Virus record (IMG/VR): IMGVR_UViG_2526164632_000015
Span: 1-12,112 of that record
Source of the DNA: a virus
Taxonomy: Duplodnaviria; Heunggongvirae; Uroviricota; Caudoviricetes
DNA length: 12,112 nt
Strand: one strand, 5' to 3'
Shown: piece by piece, positions 1 through 12,112 of the stretch
How the letters are laid out: each line of letters opens with the position of its first letter
How positions within the stretch are numbered: the first letter of the stretch is position 1
Notes under the pieces: model-generated
Databases searched by the model: none
What the model was told of the DNA's origin: nothing
Seen by the model: the letters and a program-made list of their open reading frames with translations, nothing else
Position numbers and translations under genes: made by a program

Positions 1-2
1 GC

Positions 3-182
3 TATGGGCTGACAGTGACGGACTCGTGCCTCTTCACCAAACGCCTGGAGCGGGGCCGCTTCGTCTGGCCGGTCACCCGCGATGGAAAGGTTCACCTTAC
101 TCCGGCTCAGTTGTCCATGCTTCTAGAAGGCATCGACTGGAAGCACCCGAAACGAACGGAACGCGCTGGCATCCGCATATAA
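3..182 (+). CDS. tnpB: IS66-family TnpB (orf2), C-terminal fragment, 5' end cut by window edge
   Basis: Frame ending at TAA 180-182 translates to ...CLFTKRLERGRFVWPVTRDGKVHLTPAQLSMLLEGIDWKHPKR..., closely matching the C-terminus of the complete TnpB at 10123-10470 (...CLLTKRLERGRFAWPSARDGKVFLTPAQLAMLLEGIDWRQPKR...). Confidence 0.85.
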   Translation, partial: YGLTVTDSCLFTKRLERGRFVWPVTRDGKVHLTPAQLSMLLEGIDWKHPKRTERAGIRI

Positions 183-201
183 CCCGTTGTAAAGTGAGGA
201 T

Positions 202-1773
202 ATGGACACCTCACTTGCTCATGAGAATGCCCGCCTGCGGGCACTGTTGCAGACGCAACAGGACACCATCCGCCAGATGGCGAAATACAACCGCCTGCTC
301 TCACAGCGGGTGGCGGCTTATGCTTCCGAAATCAACCGGCTGAAGGCGCTGGTTGCGAAACTGCAGCGCATGCAGTTCGGTAAAAGCTCAGAAAAACTTC
401 GCGCTAAAACCGAACGGCAGATACAGGAAGCACAGGAGCGAATCAGAGCACTTCAGGAAGAAATGGCGGAAACGCTGGGTGAGCAATATGACCCGGTACT
501 GCCATCCGCCCTGCGCCAGTCTTCAGCCCGTAAACCGTTACCGGCCTCACTTCCCCGTGAAACCCGGGTCATCCGGCCGGAAGAGGAATGCTGCCCGGCC
601 TGTGGTGGTGACCTCAGTCCTCTGGGGTGTGATGTGTCAGAGCAACTGGAGCTTATCAGCAGCGCCTTTAAGGTTATCGAAACACAACGTCCGAAACTGG
701 CCTGTTGTCGGTGCGACCATATCGTGCAGGCAACAGTACCTTCAAAACCCATTGCACGCAGTTATGCCGGAGCGGGGCTTCTGGCCCATGTTGTTACCGG
801 GAAATATGCAGACCATCTGCCGTTATACCGCCAGTCAGAAATATACCGTCGCCAGGGCGTGGAGCTGAGCCGCGCCACGCTGGGGCGCTGGACAGGTGCC
901 GTTGCTGAACTGCTGGAGCCGCTGTATGACGTCCTGCGCCAGTATGTGCTGATGCCCGGTAAAGTCCATGCTGATGATATCCCCGTCCCGGTCCAGGAGC
1001 CGGGCAGCGGTAAAACCCGGACCGCCCGGCTGTGGGTCTACGTCCGTGATGACCGTAACGCCGGTTCGGAAATGCCCCCGGCGGTCTGGTTCGCGTACTC
1101 ACCGGACCGGAAAGGTATCCATCCACAAAATCATCTGGCCGGTTACAGCGGTGTGCTTCAGGCCGATGCTTACGGTGGTTACCGGGTGTTATACGAATCC
1201 GGCAGAATAACGGAAGCCGCGTGTATGGCTCATGCCCGGAGAAAAATCCACGATGTGCATGCAAGAGTGCCCACCGACATCACCACGGAAGCCCTGCAGC
1301 GTATCGGTGAACTGTATGCCATAGAGGCAGAAGTCCGGGGATGTACAGCAGAACAGCGTCTGGCGGCAAGAAAAGCCAGAGCTGCGCCACTGATGCAGTC
1401 ACTGTATGACTGGATACAGACTCAGATGAAAACACTGTCGCGTCACTCGGATACGGCAAAAGCGTTCGCATACCTGCTGAAACAGTGGGATGGCCTGAAC
1501 GTGTACTGCAGTAATGGCTGGGTGGAAATCGACAACAACATCGCAGAGAACGCCTTACGGGGAGTGGCCGTAGGCCGGAAAAACTGGCTGTTCGCGGGTT
1601 CCGACAGCGGTGGCGAACATGCGGCGGTGTTGTACTCGCTGATCGGCACATGCCGTCTGAACAATGTGGAACCAGAAAAATGGCTGCGTTACGTCATTGA
1701 GCATATCCAGGATTGGCCGGCAAACCGGGTACGCGATCTGTTGCCCTGGAAAGTTGATCTGACCTCTCAGTAA
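202..1773 (+). CDS. tnpC: IS66-family transposase TnpC (orf3), intact, 523 aa
   Basis: 523-aa ORF with GAGGA Shine-Dalgarno upstream. It has an N-terminal coiled-coil-like region, a CxxC...CxxC zinc-ribbon (CCPACGG...CCRCD) and the conserved IS66 transposase core ([38 protein letters not shown]). About 70% identical in the C-terminal half to the copy B TnpC. Confidence 0.9.
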
Positions 1774-1803
1774 ATATCAATACGGTTCTGGCGAGCCGCT
1801 TAC
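1774..1803. repeat. Right terminal inverted repeat of IS66 copy A
   Basis: 30 bp between the tnpC stop and the terminal ...CGCTTAC; shares the AGAACCGTATTGA core with the copy B right end. Exact inner boundary of the repeat is uncertain. Confidence 0.6.
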
Positions 1804-1844
1804 GATACACCGTTATATTCAAATTGTTCTGTTTTCAGGAACAT
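1804..1844 (-). pseudogene. G: 5' remnant (13 codons) of lambda G-like tail assembly chaperone gene, cut by IS66 copy A
   Basis: Minus-strand ATG at 1842-1844 lies 18 bp downstream of the gpV stop and reads MFLKTEQFEYNGV before hitting the IS terminus at 1803. This matches my recollection of the lambda gpG N-terminus (MFLKTESFEHNGV...) and the expected V-G gene order. Confidence 0.7.
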
Positions 1845-1862
1845 CGCTTATCTCTCAGCTCT

Positions 1863-2609
1863 TTAGCCACCCGGCACATTATTAACGGTAATTTCAGCCA
1901 CCGCAGCAAACTGACCATTACCGGAAATCACAGGGATGCTGACTTTTCCATCCTTAACCCCCGTCACAGTAATCGTCATATCTTTCACGCTAATGGTGGC
2001 TTTTGATGGATCGGCGGAAATCGCCCTGAATGTCTTATCCGTTGCATTTTCCGGTTCCACAGTAACGGTCAGGGTGGTTGTTTTCCCTTTTTCAACCGTA
2101 CCTGTCGGCGTTACCTTAATCGCAGTGACCGGCGTAATTTTGCTGCGTTCTTCCGCTACAGAAGGTTTACCCACGTTAGTGACTTTCACCGTGCGGGTGA
2201 TCACTTCTTTCGCCGTCACGGCCTTACCGATACTGCTGACCCAGCCACGAAACACATCCACCGTGCCATTCGGAAAACGGATTTTATAGGCCCGGACATC
2301 GCCGCTTTCAAACCAGCCTATAAGCCCTTTCTGGCCTTCCTCTCCCGGTTTCCAGGCCAGTGTAAAACTGGTATCACCTGCAGATTTCTGTCCCTGCCCG
2401 GTCGCGCTCCAGTCCGCGTCTTCATCATCCAGGTAGTTATCATCGTAGGATTCTGCCGTCATCTCGCCCGGCGTCAGATCCTTCACCTTAGCCAGTCGCT
2501 GCCAGTCATCATCTGACAACGGGTTGGCATAAGCATCATCCTTGCCGGTGTACACCCATAGTGTGGTGCCGGAACCTTTCACCGGCTCAAGAGGATTTGG
2601 TATTGCCAT
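1863..2609 (-). CDS. V: Major tail protein (lambda gpV homologue) with C-terminal Ig-like domain
   Basis: 248-aa ORF. Motifs [59 protein letters not shown] and [40 protein letters not shown] match lambda gpV as I recall it. C-terminal ~90 aa is a beta-rich Ig-like region. Confidence 0.92.
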
Positions 2610-2616
2610 ATCGTCC

Positions 2617-3015
2617 TCACATCTCGTAGGTAATTTTCCACAGGAGATCTGCCGATCCCCACATCATAAACTCATCATCCCGGCGGTAGTCATACCCCTG
2701 AAGATTCATCTTCAGCAGTAACGCACTGAGGCCGGGAACCGCCTCCAGCGCAGGAAGGATTTTCTCTTCCATCCACATATCCAGTGCCGAGTCCGGTTCT
2801 TTTGCCCTGAGAAAAACTTCAATATGCAGTGTCGCCTCCCAGGTCCCCTCATCAACGAACTCGTCAGCAGCAGACGCATCAGTCAGGTAAACAGCAACAG
2901 CAGGCAGTTCCTGTTCATCAATAAAAACCGGGCGGCCGTCAAACCAGCTCACCCGCTCAGAAATATTGTCTTTCAGGGCAGACAGAACTGCCGTCCGTAT
3001 TTCACGGTGTTTCAT
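2617..3015 (-). CDS. U: Tail terminator protein (lambda gpU homologue)
   Basis: 132-aa ORF. Start [11 protein letters not shown], internal LHIEVFL and C-terminal GYDYRRDD...SADL...ITYEM match the lambda gpU pattern. Sits between Z and V as in lambda. Confidence 0.88.
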
Positions 3016-3027
3016 ACACCCTCCCTG

Positions 3028-3657
3028 TCATTTTCTTTTCAGCACCAGGCGTAACTGATGCGTCATGGCTTTCATCATCTGCGCCGGTAATTTTTCCCGG
3101 TACATCCGGTCCCGTTCACGTTCAAAAGTTTCTGCCAGCGGTCCGGCAGTCGGAATTTTCACCACTTCAATCGGCAGACGGTAGCGTTTCGGCCTCCCTT
3201 TGCTGTCAGCACCGGTGGACGATGGTGCCCACGGCATACGCTGCATCACATGCCAGCGTCCGTTAGCCAGCCGGGTGATAAAGGCGTCCGGGATCCGTCT
3301 TTTCCCCACAATCAGCACACTGCCGCCCCCTTTCTTGACCGAACGCTCGCCTTTCTTTCGTCGCTTTCTGCGGGAAAGCCGCACGCTGGCCGTCCCCAGT
3401 TTTATGGCGGGCAGATTACCGGTGTTGATGATGACCTTCGCATAAATCCTGTCTGCGCTAGCCCGTTGCAGGCGGATACGCTCACGGATGAGACGGCGCG
3501 GAACCGCCAGCTCCCTGGCAACCGAAGAGGCCGTTTTCGCGATGATGGACTCCGCCACACGGTTAAGTGTCGTGGCGGCAGCCCGGGGAACGGCACGGCG
3601 GTCAATTGCATCCAGATTTTTCATGGCCTGCGCCAGACCTTTTATTGCCATACTCAT
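3028..3657 (-). CDS. Z: Minor tail protein Z (lambda gpZ homologue)
   Basis: 209-aa ORF. MAIKGL..., LPAIKLG, RLSRRKRRKKGERS..KGGGSVLIVGKRRIPDAFI..LANGRWHVMQR track lambda gpZ closely. Confidence 0.88.
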   Translation of the reverse strand: MSMAIKGLAQAMKNLDAIDRRAVPRAAATTLNRVAESIIAKTASSVARELAVPRRLIRERIRLQRASADRIYAKVIINTGNLPAIKLGTASVRLSRRKRRKKGERSVKKGGGSVLIVGKRRIPDAFITRLANGRWHVMQRMPWAPSSTGADSKGRPKRYRLPIEVVKIPTAGPLAETFERERDRMYREKLPAQMMKAMTHQLRLVLKRK

Positions 3658-3935
3658 TCCTGTTCGACAAAAATCCGGGGTTTACCGTTGTACGTGTCAT
3701 AACGGGTCACCGTCAGTGTGCGCCCCGCAAACACAACAACATCATGACGGGCCGGACGGTACCGGGCTGAAAACACCACCAGTGACAACTGGCTGCCCGA
3801 AAGCGCCCCCATCTCCGCGGACTCTTCCTCCGGCATCACGTCATACACGACGCCGTTAATCTCCGCCTGTTTGCCCATCACCCGAACGGTCGCCCCGTCC
3901 ATCCGGCAACACATTCGCGTAAACAGATCAGACAT
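3654..3935 (-). CDS. Small head-tail joining protein (gpFII-position, head-tail attachment-like)
   Basis: 93-aa ORF in the position lambda FII occupies before Z; start overlaps the upstream gene by 8 bp. Assignment is by position and size only. Confidence 0.5.
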   Translation of the reverse strand: MSDLFTRMCCRMDGATVRVMGKQAEINGVVYDVMPEEESAEMGALSGSQLSLVVFSARYRPARHDVVVFAGRTLTVTRYDTYNGKPRIFVEQE

Positions 3936-4254
3936 TGATTTTTACCGCCACAGTGGCGCTGTTTGCAGGAGCATTTTCCCAGGCTACCCCCGCGGCCACC
4001 GCACCCTCTGCAGCCAGCTGCACAACCCCGTCCTTCAGATAAACCACCGCGCCGGACTGAATGTCGTCAGCAGACTGTTTGGGCAGAAGGAACACGCCTT
4101 CGGCAAAACCGTCACCGGCATCACCGGCAGGAATATCTGTAATGGCCACGGCCACCATACTGCCGACCACCACCGCAGCACCGCTCAGGATGGTCTGATC
4201 TCCGGCATTCACCAGTTCAATGGTGGTACCGTCCTGTACAAAATTTTTCGCCAT
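3928..4254 (-). CDS. Small Gly/Ala/Val-rich head protein, putative decoration/cement protein (DUF2190-like)
   Basis: 108-aa ORF with a good Shine-Dalgarno (GGAGAAA about 8 nt upstream of ATG) immediately after the capsid gene. Composition is beta-rich G/A/V. Function inferred from position and composition. Confidence 0.5.
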   Translation of the reverse strand: MAKNFVQDGTTIELVNAGDQTILSGAAVVVGSMVAVAITDIPAGDAGDGFAEGVFLLPKQSADDIQSGAVVYLKDGVVQLAAEGAVAAGVAWENAPANSATVAVKINV

Positions 4255-4270
4255 AATGCTGTTTCTCCGG

Positions 4271-4293
4271 ACAGCCCCTGTGGGGCTGTTTTT
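4271..4293 (+). terminator. Perfect 8-bp stem / 3-nt loop hairpin followed by T5 on the + strand
   Basis: ACAGCCCC-TGT-GGGGCTGT followed by TTTTT (4289-4293). Lies in the 86-bp gap between the capsid and decoration genes, directly upstream of the decoration gene's ribosome-binding site on the minus-strand mRNA. Confidence 0.4.
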
Positions 4294-4300
4294 CAGGCAT

Positions 4301-4318
4301 AAAAAAGCCCTTTCGGGC
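4301..4318 (-). terminator. Short GC hairpin with GAAA loop followed by U6 on the minus (coding) strand, just after the capsid stop
   Basis: Minus-strand reading is GCCC-GAAA-GGGC then TTTTTT (reverse complement of 4301-4306). Only a 4-bp stem, so at best a weak or partial terminator. Confidence 0.3.
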
Positions 4319-4340
4319 AGTGATTGTGATAACTCGGTTA

Positions 4341-6320
4341 TCAGGCCACCGACGAACGCACCAGCCCGCGCCAGTCAAGTGGTGCCACTCCGGCATCAAT
4401 ACGGATTTTTGTGGCAATGCCGTCAGTGGTGAAACCTTCCTGCTGATCAATGTATGGCGTGTCCACACCATCCAGCCAGGCCACTTCAATGGTGTCAGTG
4501 CCCTGTGCCGCCGCCAGATACCAGGTTTTCGGATCTGCCGCATCAAGACGCGCTTCTGCAATCACCTCAGCAAAGTTCTGGATGGGGTTAATGACACCGG
4601 CGTTTGCATCCGCCCCTTTCACACTGGCCGATTTGATGGTCTGGTTCGCCACCGTCTCCAGTGCCACCGGTACCAGCATAAAGGCCGGACGGATATTCAG
4701 GGCGCGATCGCCTTCTTTCTGCAGGCGCATCATCTGACGGGCCGCATCCAGTCCGGAAACGGAAATCCCACCGGTGGCAATATTTTTGTGATCGGCATGG
4801 AACAGCGCCTTACCGTCTGACAGTTTCGGGTTATCCGTCAGCACCTTGTAAACCAGGTCACCAATCGTTGCCTTCGCCGCACGCCCCATCTTCATCGGCA
4901 CGTCCACCAGCATATTCAGATCATCATTGATAATGGCCTGGCGGGTGATGGAGAAAATCTCCCCGTAAGTGGCCAGTGCAATGGTCTCCTTGCGATCTGA
5001 GGTGGTGATGTATTTATACTCCGCCCCCTCACGAACCTGGCGCAGAGAACCAAAACCGCCCATCCCCACGCGATACGCTGTTTTGAAGTCTGACAGGCGT
5101 CCCTTACGGGTCCACTTCTGGAAGGTTTCTTCTGATTCCTCCCAGCCCTGGATCAGCCCCTTGTTCGACACATCCAGCAGAATATTGCCAAAATCAGAGG
5201 TGCTGTGCGTCAGCGCCAGCCCGACCATCTGCATGGGGTTATAACTGGCCACCCCAATACCGCGCTCCGTCAGTGACATGCGAGCCCATTCACGCAGGGT
5301 CATCCCGTTATAGGCGTTATCCTTCTCGACATTTTCAAATCCGGCACGGGCCAGCATCGCCTGGCGGATCCCGTCCCCCACAAAATTGCCGTTTCCGGCA
5401 TAAATATGAGCCGGTGTATTTTTGTTGGTCGGCGAGGACTCCTTGCCCATTTCATTCAGCAGACGTTCACGGGCCATTTCCAGCGAACAGTCAGGATCAG
5501 CCACGCACTGTGCCTGAAGCGTCTGATAGCGACCGCCGAACATGGCAAACAGATCGTTAATGCCTGACATGCGGGCTTTCTGTTCTGCCATAACGCGGGC
5601 GCGAATGGTCGCCTCATCAGACACTGCCGGTACCGGTGATGGTTCTGTTACCGCCGGTGCAGGGATTGTCACTGTGGTATCACGCGGGGCACTGTTGTAT
5701 GGCTGCGTGATCATATTTCGGATGGATTCCGGCATCTTTTTAAATTCCTCTGTACGTTTTGACTGAATACATGCCATTGCCTTAACGGCTGGCGTCACCT
5801 GGTCTGCAAATCCGTGTGCCAGACACTCGGCACCGGACATCCAGGTCTCATCCGCCAGCATGGCGGCAATTTCATCGGTAGTTTTTCCGGTTTTCTGCGC
5901 ATATACCGGCACCATAACCGACTCAAGTTTGTCCAGACGTTCGGCATAAGTGCGCATTTTCTCCGCATCACCACCGCTGATCCCCCAGGGTTTATGGATC
6001 ATCATGAAGGCATTTTCCGGCATAATGACCGTGTCACCGGCCATCGCAATCAGGGATGCCATCGAGGCGGCAACGCCATCCACATACACGGTAATGGCCG
6101 CACCGTGATTTTTCAGGGCATTAAAAATGGCGATGCCTTCAAAGACATCGCCACCCGGTGAGTTGATGTGGAGATTAATGTGGGTGATATCACCCAGGGC
6201 ATTCATATCGCTGACAAACTGCTTCGCGGTAACTCCCCAGAAACCAATCTCGTCATAAATATAAATATCCGCCTCACCCTGACCACCCGCCTGCATCCTG
6301 AACCAGGATTTATTCTTCAT
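4341..6320 (-). CDS. Fused head maturation protease (ClpP-like) / scaffold-like linker / HK97-fold major capsid protein
   Basis: One uninterrupted minus-strand frame. N-terminal ~200 aa carries ClpP-type motifs (HINSPGGDV, VDGVAASMASLIAMAGD, MMIHKPWG). A charged, helix-prone linker follows, then a ~300-aa C-terminal capsid-like region. The longest ORF runs to 6512, but that extension overlaps the portal coding region; start chosen at M65 (ATG 6318-6320, MKNKSWFR...). Start codon is uncertain; 6296 is an alternative. Confidence 0.8.
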   Translation of the reverse strand: MKNKSWFRMQAGGQGEADIYIYDEIGFWGVTAKQFVSDMNALGDITHINLHINSPGGDVFEGIAIFNALKNHGAAITVYVDGVAASMASLIAMAGDTVIMPENAFMMIHKPWGISGGDAEKMRTYAERLDKLESVMVPVYAQKTGKTTDEIAAMLADETWMSGAECLAHGFADQVTPAVKAMACIQSKRTEEFKKMPESIRNMITQPYNSAPRDTTVTIPAPAVTEPSPVPAVSDEATIRARVMAEQKARMSGINDLFAMFGGRYQTLQAQCVADPDCSLEMARERLLNEMGKESSPTNKNTPAHIYAGNGNFVGDGIRQAMLARAGFENVEKDNAYNGMTLREWARMSLTERGIGVASYNPMQMVGLALTHSTSDFGNILLDVSNKGLIQGWEESEETFQKWTRKGRLSDFKTAYRVGMGGFGSLRQVREGAEYKYITTSDRKETIALATYGEIFSITRQAIINDDLNMLVDVPMKMGRAAKATIGDLVYKVLTDNPKLSDGKALFHADHKNIATGGISVSGLDAARQMMRLQKEGDRALNIRPAFMLVPVALETVANQTIKSASVKGADANAGVINPIQNFAEVIAEARLDAADPKTWYLAAAQGTDTIEVAWLDGVDTPYIDQQEGFTTDGIATKIRIDAGVAPLDWRGLVRSSVA

Positions 6321-7811
6321 GCTGGCTGTCGGTGGCCTGCTGACGCTGTTGTTCAGTTCCGGCACTGTTGCCTCCTTTGTCGTTGACGGGGTCAGTATCA
6401 AAGACCAGCCCCAGTCTGCTGTTTTCATCAATTTCAGCCTTGCGGCGACGTTTGACCTCATCCGGATTGCGCCCGCCGGCACGCACCCAGTCAGATTCTG
6501 TCGCTGCACCACCCCGGATCTGAATTCTCCAGGCTTCAGCTTCCTTAACCGGGTCGATCCACGGCATCACCGGACCGGAATACGTCGCGTTATATAGCGT
6601 TTTCATCTCCACATCCGCCGGAATTTTCAGCAGACCTGCCGCAACCACCATATTCAGCCATGTCCGGTACACCGGACGGGTTACCGCGCCAATAAAACAG
6701 TCCTGCAGGATCAGGTAACCATCCGTGGACTCGACCAGCTCCTGCCGCTGGGCACTGTAGGTGCCGTTATAGTTACGCGCCGCACTGGAAAAACTCAGAC
6801 GACTGCCCGCTGCCACTGCACGCAACTGGCCGTTGCGGAAAGTTTCAAGGTTGGGATTGGGACGGTCTGATTTGACCATGCCGATATCCTCGCCCTTGCG
6901 CAAATCGTCATAAATAATACCCGGGGTGATATGGACTTCCCGGTCGGTTTCTTTGATCCCCGGCTCTTCATAGTCCTGCCCGTCACCTTTACGGATATAC
7001 AGTCCCAGCGCCGCGGCAATACGCGCCGCAGTGAGTTCCGCATCCTCATACTCCTTAAGGGCACTGATCCGCATCAGCACCCCCGATAACATGGATGAGC
7101 CTCGCGTCTGATGCAGACGACGAGTGAACTTCAGGTGGATCATTTTTCCGGCAGCGATTTCTTTCGTATCACTCTGCCGGCCGCTGACCGGATAATTTTT
7201 ATAAACCAGATATTTTTCGGTCTTCCCCACTCATCAAGAAAAACCCCCTGATTCAGTCCGGCGGATTCATCAGTGCGCATGGGAACAAAATCCGGCTCCA
7301 TCGCCTCAAGCCAGAATGGCACTCCCGCCGTCCGTTCCAGACCGTTTCCCGCACCACTGACCATCTGCGCAAACACTTCACCATCCCGCAGCCAGGTCCG
7401 CAGCAGTAAACGTTCAAGCACGGGACGGGTATACTGCCCTGTCACATCCGGACTCACGGACCACTCAGCCCACAACCGGCGGATATCCGCAGCCAGCTCT
7501 GCCGCCATTTCCCCGTTTTTTCGTAATGGCTGAGGCTCCACAATAATTCCCCTGGCACCAATCACCCGCTCTTCCAGCTTGTCAAACACACCAATCACCA
7601 GGTCATGATTGATATCCAGAAAACGGGCCTGCTCCCGCAGGGAAACCGCACCGTATTTACTGAGCTGATCAGCAGAGCGATTTTCCCGCCGGGCTTTATG
7701 TGTCCGGGTCGGTTTCACCGCCTCATAGGCCATGATTAACGCCCTTGAACGCAGTCTGGCTGCTTTCCAGCCGGGGGAAAACACGCCTATCACATCATCA
7801 ATAATTGCCAT
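6310..7811 (-). pseudogene. Phage portal protein, split by a single-base frameshift (or homopolymer sequencing error)
   Basis: Two overlapping minus-strand ORFs (7811-7140, 223 aa; 7230-6310, 306 aa) sum to a typical ~530-aa portal and sit between gpW and the protease/capsid gene. The frame switch must lie between 7233 and 7200, where there is an A5 run on the coding strand (T5 at 7213-7217 on +). Adding one A would read ...LDEWGRPKKYLVYKNYPVSG... Confidence 0.75.
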
Positions 7812-8047
7812 TAAAACCTCGCCAGTTTAAATCCTGGTTTTCCCCGCCTGCGGCTCACCATCGCGGCAAGCCTGCGTTCCCACTCCTGACGTCCGGCGCG
7901 GATCTGAGAAAGGCTTTCCAGCGTCAGTTGCTGTCCGTTGAAGGTGACAGACTTCCCCTCCAGTACGGCCATTTCCGCTTCACGGTACCGCTGTATCATT
8001 TCTCTGGCTTCTTCTGTGCTCACAACCAGCCTCCTGATGTTATCCAT
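7811..8047 (-). CDS. W: Head-tail joining protein (lambda gpW-like)
   Basis: 78-aa ORF between terminase large subunit and portal, as W is in lambda. C-terminus ...RRRGKPGF resembles the lambda gpW C-terminus (...RRRGPAGF) as recalled. Stop overlaps portal start (TAATG). Confidence 0.65.
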   Translation of the reverse strand: MDNIRRLVVSTEEAREMIQRYREAEMAVLEGKSVTFNGQQLTLESLSQIRAGRQEWERRLAAMVSRRRGKPGFKLARF

Positions 8048-9640
8048 GGATTATCTTCCGCACGCTCCGTCCGCAGTTTTTTCTTCCGGCGACGGCGTTT
8101 TTCTGCCCCGGCCGTCAGTTCCGGGGATACCGTTTCACCAGAACGCTCCTGCGGGAAGACGAGCCACGTTTCCCGCTGTGCCCAGTCCGGTGCGGAGGGC
8201 CAGCGGATCTTTTCGTAACCATGCAGAACGGCAAGCGCATCCGCATAAACCAGCAGGTCAAACGCCTCGTTAGCTCCCCTGCCCGGTTTTCGCCATTTTC
8301 CGTCACTGCCGCGCTCTTCATAGGTCAGCTCATCGTAAAACCATCGCCCCAGCCAGTCGGGAAAGTGGATATAGTTCGGCCCTGGTGTGTCACGCCACAG
8401 GGCATTATTTACACGGTCCTTAAACGCATCCGTCTGAACCAGCCACAGCGCGACATCGCCACTGGCTCTGGCACGGCGGGCACTTCTGCCGGTATTATCC
8501 GGGAAGGTACGGTTAATCAGCCTGTCACGGCGAAGTCCATCCCCCTTGAACAGAAACACCCTGTTGCCCAGTCCGTCACTCCGGCAACGACACCAGAAAC
8601 GATAGGCGTTATCTGTCACCCCGGCTTCCCCTCCCGTATCCACCGCCATGGCCATCAGACGCATGCGCACATCCGGATCAGAAGCCAGCGGCCATGTTTT
8701 ATGGAACACATCCGTCAGCAACAAATCCCAGTCCTCCGGATATGCCGCCGGATCAACCGGCAGACTTTCACCGTTGGGACTGCAGCGCAGTGAATGCCGG
8801 ATGTTATAGCGATCAACAATCCAGCGTTCCCCCTGCTCTCCGTATCCGGTGATCTGCACAACAAAACGGCGATTTTTACCGCCCTGTACGTCAACCGTTG
8901 CCTCAATAAAACGCACACCATCCGGCACAGATCGCCGGGGAAACGGCTCGGCACGCTGTTCAAGCAGTTCACTTTTACGCTGTTCCGTGGCTGAACGGGG
9001 CAGATAGGGGCGTCCGATATCGGTGTTCACCACCGCTTTCAGGGTCTCTTCACTGCCGGTTCGCTCATACTCTTCTTCTGCCGCCAGCAGTTTAAAAATC
9101 AGTTGTTCCCAGGTCTGAAACGCCGCAGCCGGCCCCTCCATCCAGAATGACGCAATCCGGGAATTTCGTGGCGTTCCGGTGATACTGCCGTCCGCCACCG
9201 CCCGTTCACCTTCACGAAGCCAGATCCCTTTGTTATTCAGTTCGCGTTTCTGCTCAGGGGCAATCAGCCCGCGACAATGCGGACACATCAGACGGGCAGC
9301 CTGACCGGCAGCCACAAAATCCGGGTTATTCCGGTATCCGGTCATGTTATCCATCACCGGCTGAAAATATTCCCCGCAGTGCGGACACGGCCAGTACCAC
9401 CGGCGGCGGTCTCCCCGGTTATACAGTGACAGGATCCCCGTTGTTGGCGGTGCCTCATGTGCGCCGCCACAGCGCCATTTGGTGTCAGTGATATCCCGCC
9501 CCGGCGAACTCTCGACCAGGGTCATCCCCGAGGACATAAAGGTGGTGGTACGCTTTGATGCCAGGGTGAAGGCATCCCCTTCCCCGTCCACGTTTTCAGG
9601 GAAACGGTCATAATCCGTCAGCGCCACACGACGGTAATCC
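8020..9640 (-). pseudogene. A: Terminase large subunit (lambda gpA family), N-terminally truncated by IS66 copy B
   Basis: About 540 codons of open frame with a CPHCGE...CPHC zinc-binding segment and a C-terminal region (IHFPDW..., NEAFDLLVYADALAVL) resembling lambda gpA. Typical gpA proteins are ~640 aa; the frame runs straight into the IS terminus at 9641. The ORF track extends it to 9723 only because the frame stays open by chance inside the IS. Confidence 0.8.
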
Positions 9641-9672
9641 GTAAGCGTCGTCTCAGCACCGTCTGGCAGATC
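9641..9672. repeat. Left terminal inverted repeat of IS66 copy B
   Basis: GTAAGCGTCGTCTCAGCACCGTCTGG...; matches the right-end reverse complement at positions 1-8 and across the CAGCACCGT region. Imperfect. Confidence 0.55.
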
Positions 9673-9721
9673 CTGAAATTCCTGAGAGAATAGTGGACAC
9701 CAAATATGGTGGACGCTATCC

Positions 9722-10126
9722 ATGAAATCATTAACCGCAGTGCGTAAAAAAAGCCCTAATTATCCCGTTGAGTTCAAAATCAAAATGGTTGAACTCTCGC
9801 ATCGACCAGAGATCTCCGTAGCGCAACTCGCTCGTGAGCATGGGATCAACGATAATTTGCTGTTCAAGTGGCGCCAGTACTGGCGCGAAGGAAAACTACG
9901 TCCTCCTTCAACAACAGAAAACAACGTGCCTGAGCTGCTCCCGATAACACTTGATGCCGAAGATGTTGTCCCTACAACCTCCCCCCGGTCACAACCTGTA
10001 GCTGCTGCGACACCTGAATCACTCAATATCAGCTGTGAAGTGACGTTCCGGCACGGATCACTCCGTCTGAATGGTGCCATCAGCGAAAATATCCTGAACC
10101 TGCTGATACGGGAGCTCAAACGTTGA
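9722..10126 (+). CDS. tnpA: IS66-family TnpA (orf1), small helix-turn-helix protein
   Basis: 134-aa ORF, first gene inside the IS, followed by tnpB with overlapping stop and start. The true start codon may be internal. Confidence 0.75.
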   Translation: MKSLTAVRKKSPNYPVEFKIKMVELSHRPEISVAQLAREHGINDNLLFKWRQYWREGKLRPPSTTENNVPELLPITLDAEDVVPTTSPRSQPVAAATPESLNISCEVTFRHGSLRLNGAISENILNLLIRELKR

Positions 10127-10470
10127 TCCCATTACCATCAGGGACAAAGATCTGGCTGGTCGCTGGCATCACCGATATGAGAAACGGCTTCAACGGCCTG
10201 GCGGCAAAGGTGCAGACGACGCTGAAAGACGATCCGATGTCAGGTCACGTTTTTATCTTCCGTGGGCGTAATGGCAGTCAGGTAAAGCTCCTCTGGTCTA
10301 CCGGCGATGGACTGTGTCTGCTGACCAAACGGCTGGAGCGCGGCCGCTTCGCCTGGCCGTCAGCCCGGGATGGCAAAGTGTTCCTCACACCGGCACAGCT
10401 GGCGATGCTGCTGGAAGGTATCGACTGGCGGCAGCCTAAAAGACTGCTTACGTCCCTGACTATGTTGTAA
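10123..10470 (+). CDS. tnpB: IS66-family TnpB (orf2)
   Basis: 115-aa ORF (MIPLPSGTKIWLVAGITDMRNGFNGLAAKV...). Apparent TTG start overlaps the tnpA TGA stop (TTGA), suggesting translational coupling. Confidence 0.8.
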   Translation: MIPLPSGTKIWLVAGITDMRNGFNGLAAKVQTTLKDDPMSGHVFIFRGRNGSQVKLLWSTGDGLCLLTKRLERGRFAWPSARDGKVFLTPAQLAMLLEGIDWRQPKRLLTSLTML

Positions 10471-10518
10471 GCCTCTTTATCCTGGTCGACGCTGAATGAG
10501 CCTGGTAATATACCCGGT

Positions 10519-12058
10519 ATGAGCAGCTCACTTCCTGACGATATCAATGCACTGAAACGTCTCCTTGCCGAACAGGAGGCGCTGAACCGTGCCCTGCTGG
10601 AAAAGCTGAACGAGCGTGAACGCGAAATAGACCATCTGCAGGCACAGCTGGATAAGCTGCGCCGGATGAACTTCGGCAGCCGCTCCGAAAAAGTCTCCCG
10701 TCGTATCGCACAGATGGAAGCTGACCTGAAGGCACTTCAGAAAGAAAGTGATACCCTTACCGGTCGGGTTGACGACCCGGCCGTGCAGCGCCCGCTGCGT
10801 CAAACCCGCACCCGCAAACCGTTCCCCGAATCACTCCCCCGCGATGAAAAACGGCTGCTGCCGGCAGCATCATGCTGCCCGGAATGTGGAGGCTCACTGA
10901 GCTATCTGGGTGAGGATGCCGCCGAACAGCTGGAGTTGATGCGCAGCGCCTTCCGGGTTATCCGGACTGTACGTGAAAAAGCATGCCTGTACTCAGTGCG
11001 ATGCCATCGTGCAGGCCCCCGCGCCTTCACGGCCCATCGAGCGGGGTATCGCAGGACCGGGGCTGCTGGCCCGCGTGCTGATCTCAAAGTATGCAGAGCA
11101 CACCCCGCTGTACCGCCAGTCTGAAATGTACGGCCGCCAGGGCGTGGAGCTGAGTCGTTCACTGCTGTCGGGCTGGGTGGATGCATGCTGCCGGCTACTG
11201 TCACCGCTGGAAGAAGCGCTTCAGGACTATGTGCTGACTGACGGTAAGCTCCATGCTGATGACACGCCTGTCCCGGTGCTGTTGCCAGGCAATAAGAAAA
11301 CGAAGACCGGGCGGTTATGGACCTACGTTCGTGACGACCGTAACGCCGGGTCAACGCTGGCGCCGGCGGTGTTGTTCGCTTACAGCCCGGACAGAAAAGG
11401 CATCCATCCGCAGACCCATCTTGCGGGGTTCAGTGGTGTACTGCAGGCGGATGCATACGCCGGGTTCAACGAGCTGTACCGGGATGGCCGGATAACGGAA
11501 GCCGCCTGTTGGGCTCACGCCCGCCGTAAAATCCACGATGTGCACGTTCGCACCCCGTCAGCCCTGACGGAGGAAGCGCTGAAACGGATCGGCGAACTGT
11601 ACGCCATCGAGGCAGAGATAAGGGGAATGACGGCGGAGCAGCGCCTTGCCGAACGTCAGTTGAAAACGAAACCGCTGCTGAAATCCCTGGAAAGCTGGCT
11701 GCGTGAAAAGATGAAAACCCTGTCGCGACACTCAGAACTGGCGAAAGCGTTCGCATACGCCCTGAACCAGTGGCCGGCGCTGACGTACTATGCAGATGAT
11801 GGCTGGGCTGAGGCGGACAATAACATCGCTGAAAATGCGTTGCGGATGGTCAGTCTGGGCCGCAAAAACTACCTGTTCTTCGGTTCGGATCATGGAGGAG
11901 AGCGGGGAGCGCTGCTGTACAGCCTGATCGGGACGTGCAAACTGAACGGAGTGGAGCCAGAAAGCTACCTCCGCTATGTCCTTGACGTCATAGCCGACTG
12001 GCCGATAAACCGGGTCGGCGAACTGCTCCCCTGGCGCGTAGCACTGCCGACTGAATAA
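10519..12058 (+). pseudogene. tnpC: IS66-family transposase TnpC (orf3) with a +1 frameshift at an A5 run (10976-10980)
   Basis: ORFs 10519-11124 and 10973-12058 together align colinearly with the intact copy A TnpC. Removing one A from the run restores ...[20 protein letters not shown]..., parallel to copy A ...[20 protein letters not shown]... Confidence 0.8.
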
Positions 12059-12095
12059 CACATCCCCGTCAATACGGTTCTTGCTGCACGCTTAC
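12059..12095. repeat. Right terminal inverted repeat of IS66 copy B
   Basis: ...CAATACGGTTCTTGCTGCACGCTTAC; shares the AGAACCGTATTGA core with the copy A right end. Confidence 0.6.
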
Positions 12096-12112
12096 CATCA
12101 AACATCGTGGTT

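Follow-up and report, generated by a model that had tools for sequence, protein, structure and literature searches.

Organization of the locus

The window, that is, the whole stretch of DNA analysed here (12,112 nucleotides), is one complete draft contig, AIHC01000031.1, of the enteropathogenic E. coli strain DEC12C, from the O111:H2 lineage (EHX38958.1, ECDEC12C_5859). It holds a 7.8 kb block of phage head and tail genes (1804-9640) which runs antiparallel to two + strand insertion sequences, one at each side. The features are listed below by window position.

1..1803, + strand: IS679, the 3' 1803 of 2704 bp (3' two-thirds); Pfam and NCBIfam matches; 99.7% identity to the prophage copy of 12A
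~1-182, 202-1773 and ~1777-1803, + strand: parts of IS679, namely the tnpB 3' end, tnpC and the right inverted repeat, ending ...GCCGCTTAC
1804..1844, - strand: remnant of gene G (tail chaperone), first 13 codons, 41 nt; adjoins the IS679 right end; deletion junction
1863..2609, - strand: major tail protein V; Phage_TTP_12 and Big_2; 'phage tail protein' in RefSeq
2617..3015, - strand: tail terminator U; Phage_tail_U; gpU
3028..3651, - strand: minor tail protein Z; Minor_tail_Z
3654..3935, - strand: Gifsy-2 family (FII-like) head-tail joining protein; PF13856
3928..4254, - strand: DUF2190 / Phage_cement_2 head protein; PF09956
4341..6320, - strand: ClpP-like prohead protease / major capsid fusion protein (RefSeq name); CLP_protease and Phage_capsid_4
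6310..7811, - strand: portal gene, split into ORFs 6310-7230 and 7140-7811
7811..8023, - strand: 70-aa conserved phage gene between portal and terminase
8020..9640, - strand: terminase large subunit (A), 3' part only; GpA_ATPase and GpA_nuclease; 'missing N-terminus' in RefSeq
9633..9640, no strand: GGTAATCC, target-site duplication of ISEc22, present in the window as the left copy only
9641..12095, + strand: ISEc22, complete, 2455 bp (2454 bp in 12A); inverted repeats start GTAAGCGT; 'IS66-like element ISEc22 family transposase' in RefSeq
9722-10126, 10123-10470 and 10519-12058, + strand: ISEc22 ORFs tnpA, tnpB and tnpC
12096..12112, no strand: 17 bases that flank another ISEc22 copy on its right, at the yoaI locus with duplication CATCAAAC; exact match in 12A and FDAARGOS_1059

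The phage block is collinear with the uninterrupted prophage of strain 55989 and 99.7% identical to it, and against the sister genome 12A it shows no mismatches, differing only at three homopolymer runs. The portal gene is split near 7213, where the window reads T5 and 12A T6; 12A, 55989 and others have the whole portal of 500 aa. The same truncated portal fragment has also been deposited for the DEC15A draft. The terminase gene measures 2124 nt, and ISEc22 cut off its first 503 (insertion point computed against 55989). A preliminary description of this DNA had the two elements bracketing a V-to-A morphogenesis block; the genes from V to the terminase are indeed present, but of A only the 3' three-quarters are there, and 41 nt of G also survive.

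Two different elements of the IS66 family

Members of the IS66 family classically carry three ORFs and GTAAGCG ends (PMC12888890). The three ORFs of ISEc22 lie within the window, while IS679 is represented by the tnpB 3' end and tnpC, since the contig starts inside the element (within tnpB); full IS679 in sister genomes measures 2704 bp and comprises tnpA, tnpB and tnpC, all three of which were seen in 12A. The TnpC proteins of both elements match PF03050 (1e-103 for IS679, 6e-107 for ISEc22) together with PF13007, PF13005 and PF13817, as IS66-type DDE transposases with leucine-zipper and zinc-finger N-terminal modules. In the left element, the DDE_Tnp_IS66 domain is accompanied by LZ, zf and C-terminal modules, and the protein reaches 474 bits with NF033517. 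ISEc22 scored 82.8 bits with IS66_ISRel24_TnpA (cut-off 74), 119.9 with IS66_TnpB (50) and 466.6 with transpos_IS66 (180). All four element ends begin GTAAGCG and have ACCGT in common at positions 18-22. We use the name IS679 following the RefSeq annotation of near-identical genomes, and the full copy has many plasmid counterparts of 100% identity, annotated there as IS679 family; ISEc22 is the ISfinder name as used in RefSeq/PGAP annotation, and its TnpC is WP_000099160.1 in two 12A copies. The plasmid pB171 (NC_002142, AB024946) is the original host of IS679. As an IS66-family element, IS679 was reportedly presented in Han et al. 2001, J Bacteriol 183:4296.

The earlier view that two different IS66-family elements stand in direct orientation at the ends was borne out, with IS679 on the left and ISEc22 on the right. 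Their DNA identity is 63-75%; an alignment of 1-1803 with 10293-12095 gave 67.5% with all columns counted and 75.0% with gapped ones left out, far under the 95% above which they had been proposed to count as copies of one element. TnpC is 58.7% identical overall. Its N-terminal part shows 43.7%, where less than in the C-terminal half had been estimated, and the remainder 67.3%, close to the estimate of about 70% for the C-terminal half. TnpB is 71% identical and TnpA 27%. The longest identical run between the elements is 20 nt, in line with the expectation that recombination between them is unlikely.

The differences at positions 4, 25, 125 and 447 of the window are shared with none of the IS679 copies of 5,426 genomes, which marks this end of the contig as low in quality. 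An origin of the IS679 part from another IS679 copy was rejected, the best match in those genomes being 99.2% and the four differences being read as contig-end errors.

Insertion sites in sister genomes

Duplications of 8 bp are general for IS66-family elements (PMC3916326). In the window, no such duplication surrounds either element: the right flank of IS679 is GATACACC, and ISEc22 has GGTAATCC on its left and CATCAAAC on its right. The same insertions do carry 8-bp duplications in sister genomes, AATAATCC around IS679 in FDAARGOS_1059 and two NCTC assemblies (UGEA01, UGEB01), and GGTAATCC at both sides of ISEc22 in 12A and UGEA01. Since they are present there, their lack in the window reflects later events or artefacts and not non-membership of the IS66 family. 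The collinear, uninterrupted prophage of 55989 carries the AATAATCC and GGTAATCC targets once each, and this, together with a separate duplication for each element, upholds the proposal that IS66-family elements entered one prophage independently. Both duplications end TAATCC; a shared target motif was considered and rejected, as other IS66-family duplications (CATCAAAC and TCCTGAAA) do not have it.

The arrangement had also been called composite-like, and only the geometry of this stands, 7.8 kb lying between two directly oriented IS66-family elements. In favor of a composite transposon, in which IS679, the phage block and ISEc22 move or arrived as one unit, both elements start GTAAGCG with the ACCGT motif common to their ends, and the outer flanks AATAATCC and GGTAATCC agree at 6 of 8 bases. 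Such a unit is nevertheless extremely improbable, and as an origin it is already contradicted: in sister genomes each IS has a perfect 8-bp duplication on both sides, where a composite would show one outer duplication without inner ones, meaning that the parts did not come in as a block, and flanks and interior are collinear with the uninterrupted prophage. The outer ends are heterologous, matching at ~13 of 22 positions. Judging from their divergence (63-75% for DNA, 59% for TnpC and 27% for TnpA), the elements do not appear to be copies of one IS, nor their ends to be used by one transposase. It had been suggested to look in sister strains for the phage segment moved as a unit; in a junction survey of 5,426 complete E. 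coli genomes, both insertions occur together in two, each junction once, at a single locus which is always this prophage. The spacing of 7.8 kb is right for the window but secondary, being 12.2 kb in sister genomes before a further 4.3-kb loss flush with the IS679 right end.

Deletions at the right end of IS679

The IS679/phage junction in the window is a deletion scar inside gpG and not an insertion site (window 1804 corresponds to 12147 of locus L001 and 8001 of L005), and the start of G now reads only 14 codons. This junction was absent from all 5,426 complete genomes. We found three alleles at the IS679 right end, with deletion sizes mapped on the intact 55989 prophage. In the first, the element is followed by AATAATCC..., a simple insertion in gene K (FDAARGOS_1059, UGEA01, UGEB01); in the second, by TGATATCG..., with 241 bp lost (12A, UGFE01, DEC12A draft); and in the third, by GATACACC..., with 4,585 bp lost (the window, DEC12C). 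In this last allele, K has lost its 5' part and G everything after the first 13 codons, and L, M, H and T are gone. In all three alleles the IS679 end is intact to its last base and the losses are flush with the same right end. As the left flank lies outside the contig, the IS679 of the window is taken as the K copy in view of the lack of mismatches to 12A elsewhere in the prophage. The L-through-G stretch, which occupies 3,345,029-3,349,372 in 12A (L001 7803-12146), would be lost from the DEC12C genome.

The contig has quality problems, namely unique differences in the first 450 bases, three homopolymer indels and a foreign end, and it might be argued that the IS679/G junction is an assembly chimera and that DEC12C is identical to DEC12A there. 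We consider this highly improbable, because the IS is joined, precisely at its final base, to unique DNA with no shared repeat to mislead the assembler, and because the DEC12A draft, from the same project, was assembled correctly in this region, with its L/IS679 junction as in the closed genome. As that junction is right, we argue for a difference between strains at the DEC12C junction.

A tentative explanation for the three alleles is that they form a natural series of one-sided adjacent deletions made by the transposase. Alternatively, the junction may come from a second IS679 copy in gene G, after which L-G either persisted on another contig, flanked by the two copies, or disappeared when these direct copies underwent homologous recombination. 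The contig begins inside IS679 with the left flank outside it, donors are plentiful (up to 13 chromosomal matches to the IS679 left end in 12A and 11 in FDAARGOS_1059), and the end product at the visible junction is indistinguishable from an adjacent deletion. This second copy is rather unlikely, however, since 12A has a shorter loss that starts at this very IS end, which fits repeated one-sided deletion from a resident copy. A weak point against it is that the exact 12A tape-measure protein was found in 22 collection blocks whose longest contigs are each at least 10 kb, whereas a 4.3-kb L-G island with IS679 at its borders would be shorter; DEC12C is not among the 10 of 23 places listed for this protein, which sequencing errors could alter.

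If the adjacent-deletion series is real, it would be sequence-level evidence for intramolecular transposition by IS66-family elements from a single retained donor copy, and it would constrain an essentially uncharacterised mechanism. To our knowledge, no formal demonstration exists of adjacent deletions made by IS66-family elements, whose transposition chemistry is poorly characterised. The nested deletions at one IS679 end are the sole point of wider use of this locus, and may be cited as circumstantial evidence on IS66-family transposition.

ISEc22 and the end of the contig

ISEc22 makes 8-bp duplications at both loci examined (the prophage and yoaI). In 12A, the right end of the prophage copy is followed by GGTAATCCGAAG, unlike in the window, where the last 17 bases match exactly from 12A position 2,426,038 onward and are also found in FDAARGOS_1059. 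The ISEc22 of the window therefore lacks its right-hand duplication because these bases belong to the flank of another copy. The source copy lies 0.93 Mb away, and the foreign tail is probably an assembly artefact. One extra A near 10976 breaks tnpC of ISEc22 into two parts, and the frameshifts in this gene and in the portal gene are probably sequencing errors, as differences in homopolymer length. The odd first 450 bases and the foreign flank at the end indicate that the repeat-derived parts of the contig are not fully trustworthy.

A different reading takes the foreign flank as real and supposes that the prophage and yoaI copies of ISEc22 recombined in DEC12C. The 17 bases are the exact flank of the yoaI locus, and tandem duplication by unequal crossing-over, giving such hybrid flanks, has been documented for IS66-family copies (PMC3916326). 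However, the two ISEc22 copies are direct and ~0.9 Mb apart in 12A and FDAARGOS_1059, so hybrid flanks would need the joint of a ~0.93-Mb tandem duplication, and the reading relies on the 17 bases with which a draft contig closes, preceded by a 2.45-kb repeat that matches 5-6 places per genome. We regard recombination between the copies as quite improbable, and a ~0.93-Mb tandem duplication in DEC12C as less likely than the adjacent-deletion series at IS679.

Probable dismantling of the prophage and comparison with known systems

The best explanation for these observations is very probably that the lambda-like prophage of DEC12C was dismantled via two unrelated transposition histories, those of ISEc22 and IS679. 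In a first, documented step ISEc22 entered the terminase large-subunit gene after nt 503, giving the duplication GGTAATCC; in a second, also documented, IS679 entered tail gene K with the duplication AATAATCC. A third step would comprise the one-sided losses to the right of IS679, starting exactly at its right inverted repeat; here the junctions are observed, and the most likely mechanism would be intramolecular transposition by IS679 (adjacent deletion), while a second IS679 insertion followed by recombination between both copies would be the alternative. The two elements landed separately and helped to disable the prophage, which is ordinary prophage decay and no new mobile unit. They do not cooperate, being too diverged for recombination and having different ends.

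The window thus documents how a lambda-like prophage of EPEC O111:H2 (DEC12) turned defective, with the terminase split by ISEc22 and tail genes gone beside IS679. The IS679/ISEc22 prophage itself carries little weight beyond bookkeeping; its junctions may serve as strain-level markers that tell apart FDAARGOS_1059-type, DEC12A-type and DEC12C-type genomes. It also calls for caution, as a window made of a whole draft contig, with repeat-derived ends and homopolymer errors, can mimic biology.

The elements and processes in the window are already known. Tn5, Tn9 and Tn10 likewise consist of two insertion sequences around a passenger segment; here, in contrast, the two sequences differ from one another and have separate duplications, a second location is lacking, and what they enclose is simply the resident prophage. 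The IS679 copy itself does not differ from the known element, with GTAAGCG ends and, in sister genomes, an 8-bp duplication, except that it is truncated by the contig start and its right end adjoins a deletion in place of a duplication. Compared with known ISEc22 (2454 bp, three ORFs), the window copy has an extra A in tnpC and the right flank of another copy, both probably artefacts. IS-adjacent deletions and IS-driven prophage decay are known in pathogenic E. coli, for example with IS629 in O157; those deletions are likewise one-sided, nested, start exactly at the IS terminus and inactivate prophage morphogenesis genes, while the IS of the window belongs to the IS66 family. A parallel in the same prophage family is ISEc8, also of the IS66 family, in tail gene T of a related O157:H7 prophage (strain F6321). 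It differs from the window in element, gene and lineage and has no associated deletion, but its orientation with respect to the late operon is the same and it is flanked by an 8-bp duplication, TCCTGAAA, as IS679 and ISEc22 are in the sister genomes.

Two IS66-family elements around the phage block

The closest complete genomes to the window are E. coli O111:H2 12A (CP077479) and FDAARGOS_1059 (CP066032), each with 99.9% identity over two pieces. The window equals the whole of AIHC01000031.1, a 12,112-bp draft contig of E. coli DEC12C (assembly GCA_000250255.2). It shows ordinary prophage decay driven by insertion sequences, viewed through an imperfect draft contig.

Features of the window (coordinates, strand, description)
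1-1803, + strand: 3' part of IS679, with the 3' end of tnpB and tnpC at 202-1773 (TnpC of 523 aa, all four IS66 transposase modules)
1804-9640, - strand: phage block with V, U, Z, a Gifsy-2/FII-like protein, a DUF2190 cement protein, a ClpP-protease/major-capsid fusion, portal, a 70-aa protein and terminase large subunit
9641-12095, + strand: complete ISEc22, with tnpA 9722-10126, tnpB 10123-10470 and tnpC 10519-12058

Both insertion sequences lie on the + strand and every phage gene between them on the - strand. The terminal repeat of IS679 finishes ...GCCGCTTAC at position 1803, and the ends of ISEc22 start GTAAGCGT. Membership of the IS66 family fits both elements on its sequence-defined criteria, as we found the three ORFs, a DDE transposase of IS66 type scoring above the curated cut-offs and GTAAGCG ends, and the 8-bp duplication is present for both in sister genomes. 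The names were assigned by RefSeq naming (the 12A transposases are called 'IS66-like element IS679 family' and 'IS66-like element ISEc22 family') and by identity to other annotated copies. The full IS679 copy of 12A has 2704 bp, with many plasmid copies 100% identical, and ISEc22 has 2454 bp.

Identity between IS679 and ISEc22
DNA, 1-1803 against 10293-12095, all columns: 67.5%
DNA, same regions, ungapped columns: 75.0%
TnpC, overall: 58.7%
TnpC, N-terminal part: 43.7%
TnpC, remainder: 67.3%
TnpB: 71%
TnpA (accessory protein): 27%

The longest run without mismatch is 20 nt. With such low identities, the preliminary description was right that two distinct IS66-family elements bracket the phage block, and its estimate of about 70% TnpC identity in the C-terminal half agrees with the 67.3% measured outside the N-terminal part. 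Nucleotide identity above 95%, proposed there as the sign of two copies of one element, was not reached in the alignment.

Insertion of ISEc22 in the terminase gene

Strain 55989 has this prophage without interruption, and the phage block matches it at 99.7% identity and in the same order. The 55989 terminase reads ...CGACGGTAATCC|GAAGAAG... at the target, and in 12A and the NCTC assembly UGEA01 ISEc22 sits at this very point, with GGTAATCC flanking it left and right. An 8-bp duplication is typical of the IS66 family (PMC3916326). By this comparison, ISEc22 is a simple insertion in the prophage. It follows nt 503 of the 2124-nt terminase gene, which leaves the bracketed block with no more than the 3' three-quarters of that gene. 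The longest terminase ORF (567 aa, 8020-9723, - strand) has its ATG start inside the left end of ISEc22, and is thus predicted to be a fusion ORF that begins in the IS and continues into what is left of terminase. Elsewhere, LAFA01000036.1 (comparison loci L015 and L021) and CP030787.2 (L012) carry the prophage with shortened terminase calls of 535 aa and 373 aa and with L and K intact, which suggests further independent terminase disruptions.

Deletions at the right end of IS679

Three alleles were found at the right end of IS679, the IS terminus being base-exact in every one.

Alleles at the IS679 right end
Simple insertion in tail gene K (FDAARGOS_1059, UGEA01, UGEB01): the right end is followed by AATAATCC..., the same 8 bp that precede the left end
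241 bp missing (12A, UGFE01, DEC12A draft AIHA01000063.1): the right end is followed by TGATATCG...
4,585 bp fewer than in the simple insertion (window, DEC12C): the right end is followed by GATACACC..., 13 codons into gene G

The 241-bp loss comprises the right duplication copy plus 233 bp across the start of K and the end of L. The stretch that 12A has and the window does not is 4,344 bp long and holds L, M, H (tape measure), T and the greater part of G; no genome among 5,426 complete ones of E. coli carries the IS679/G junction of the window. A set of three alleles that all start at the last base of one IS end is what IS-adjacent deletion classically leaves behind. Taken together, the alleles argue for insertion of IS679 followed by deletions: the element entered K with an 8-bp duplication, and DNA to its right would then have been lost flush with its right end, we infer by intramolecular transposition of IS679. 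If a second IS679 had inserted and the two copies had then recombined, the visible junction would be identical to that of an adjacent deletion; the left flank of IS679 falls outside the contig because the contig starts inside the element. The nested deletion series at one IS679 end, read here as adjacent deletions, is the sole mildly useful by-product of the analysis.

Composite arrangement

Independent insertion of the two elements, as previously proposed, is borne out by the separate 8-bp duplication of each in sister genomes. The composite-like arrangement is a matter of geometry only: since each IS has a duplication of its own and the resident prophage keeps its usual order around them, the unit was built up where it now lies and was not brought in whole. 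The preliminary description also proposed to look in sister strains for the phage segment moved as a unit; each junction occurs once, in two complete genomes and at this locus only. Among complete genomes, the whole IS679/phage/ISEc22 arrangement is restricted to 12A and FDAARGOS_1059, and the outer ends (IS679 left against ISEc22 right) are identical at about 13 of 22 positions. None of this supports movement as one unit.

Contig ends and homopolymer changes

The window starts within one multi-copy insertion sequence and stops shortly after another, and effects at the ends are therefore limited by assembly. The last 17 bases (12096-12112, CATCAAACATCGTGGTT) differ from the terminase sequence that follows the prophage ISEc22 in 12A, and match exactly the bases to the right of another ISEc22 copy, the one at the yoaI locus (positions 6057-6073 of comparison locus L002). 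This copy has its own duplication, CATCAAAC, and in 12A it lies in direct orientation to the prophage copy, about 0.93 Mb away. A real join between the prophage left flank and the yoaI right flank would mark a large tandem duplication as its novel joint; a joint of this kind is documented for ISPsy5 of Pseudomonas syringae (PMC3916326). The foreign tail is better explained as an assembly artefact, because it stands at a draft contig end right after a multi-copy 2.45-kb repeat. At the other end, four differences in 1-450 (positions 4, 25, 125 and 447) are matched by no IS679 copy of the 5,426 complete genomes (best 99.2%), and this segment is probably a consensus of low quality, or one mixed from several copies, where the contig begins.

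Over 10.3 kb, the window differs from 12A by three changes only, each of one base in homopolymer length.

Homopolymer changes relative to 12A
About 4301: A run, intergenic
About 7213: T run, portal gene split
About 10976: A run, ISEc22 tnpC split

We read all three as probable sequencing errors. The portal gene is unbroken in closed genomes, and the DEC15A draft, from the same project as DEC12C, has the identical truncated portal fragment deposited, which points to a systematic error. The frameshift-specific N-terminal TnpC fragment (10519-11124) was deposited as EHX38958.1 (ECDEC12C_5859), with an exact match in one contig, AIHC01000031.1.

Other insertions in this prophage family

AATAATCC of IS679 and GGTAATCC of ISEc22 (window 9633-9640; 5091-5098 in L001, the 12A prophage; also locus L008) have their last six bases, TAATCC, in common, adjoining the left inverted repeat. 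This motif is absent from two other IS66-family duplications, CATCAAAC and TCCTGAAA, so its sharing is probably due to chance. In all four IS66-family insertions observed in the prophage family, tnpABC is antiparallel to the late operon (n=4, not significant): IS679 in K, ISEc22 in terminase, ISEc8 in T (O157:H7 F6321) and an IS679-like element after gene I (UGBS01), as seen in the window, in comparison locus L004 (3645-6086) and in L009. A related prophage of O157:H7, where ISEc8 interrupts gene T with the duplication TCCTGAAA and in the same orientation as IS679 and ISEc22 here, indicates that IS66-family insertions are recurrent in this prophage family.
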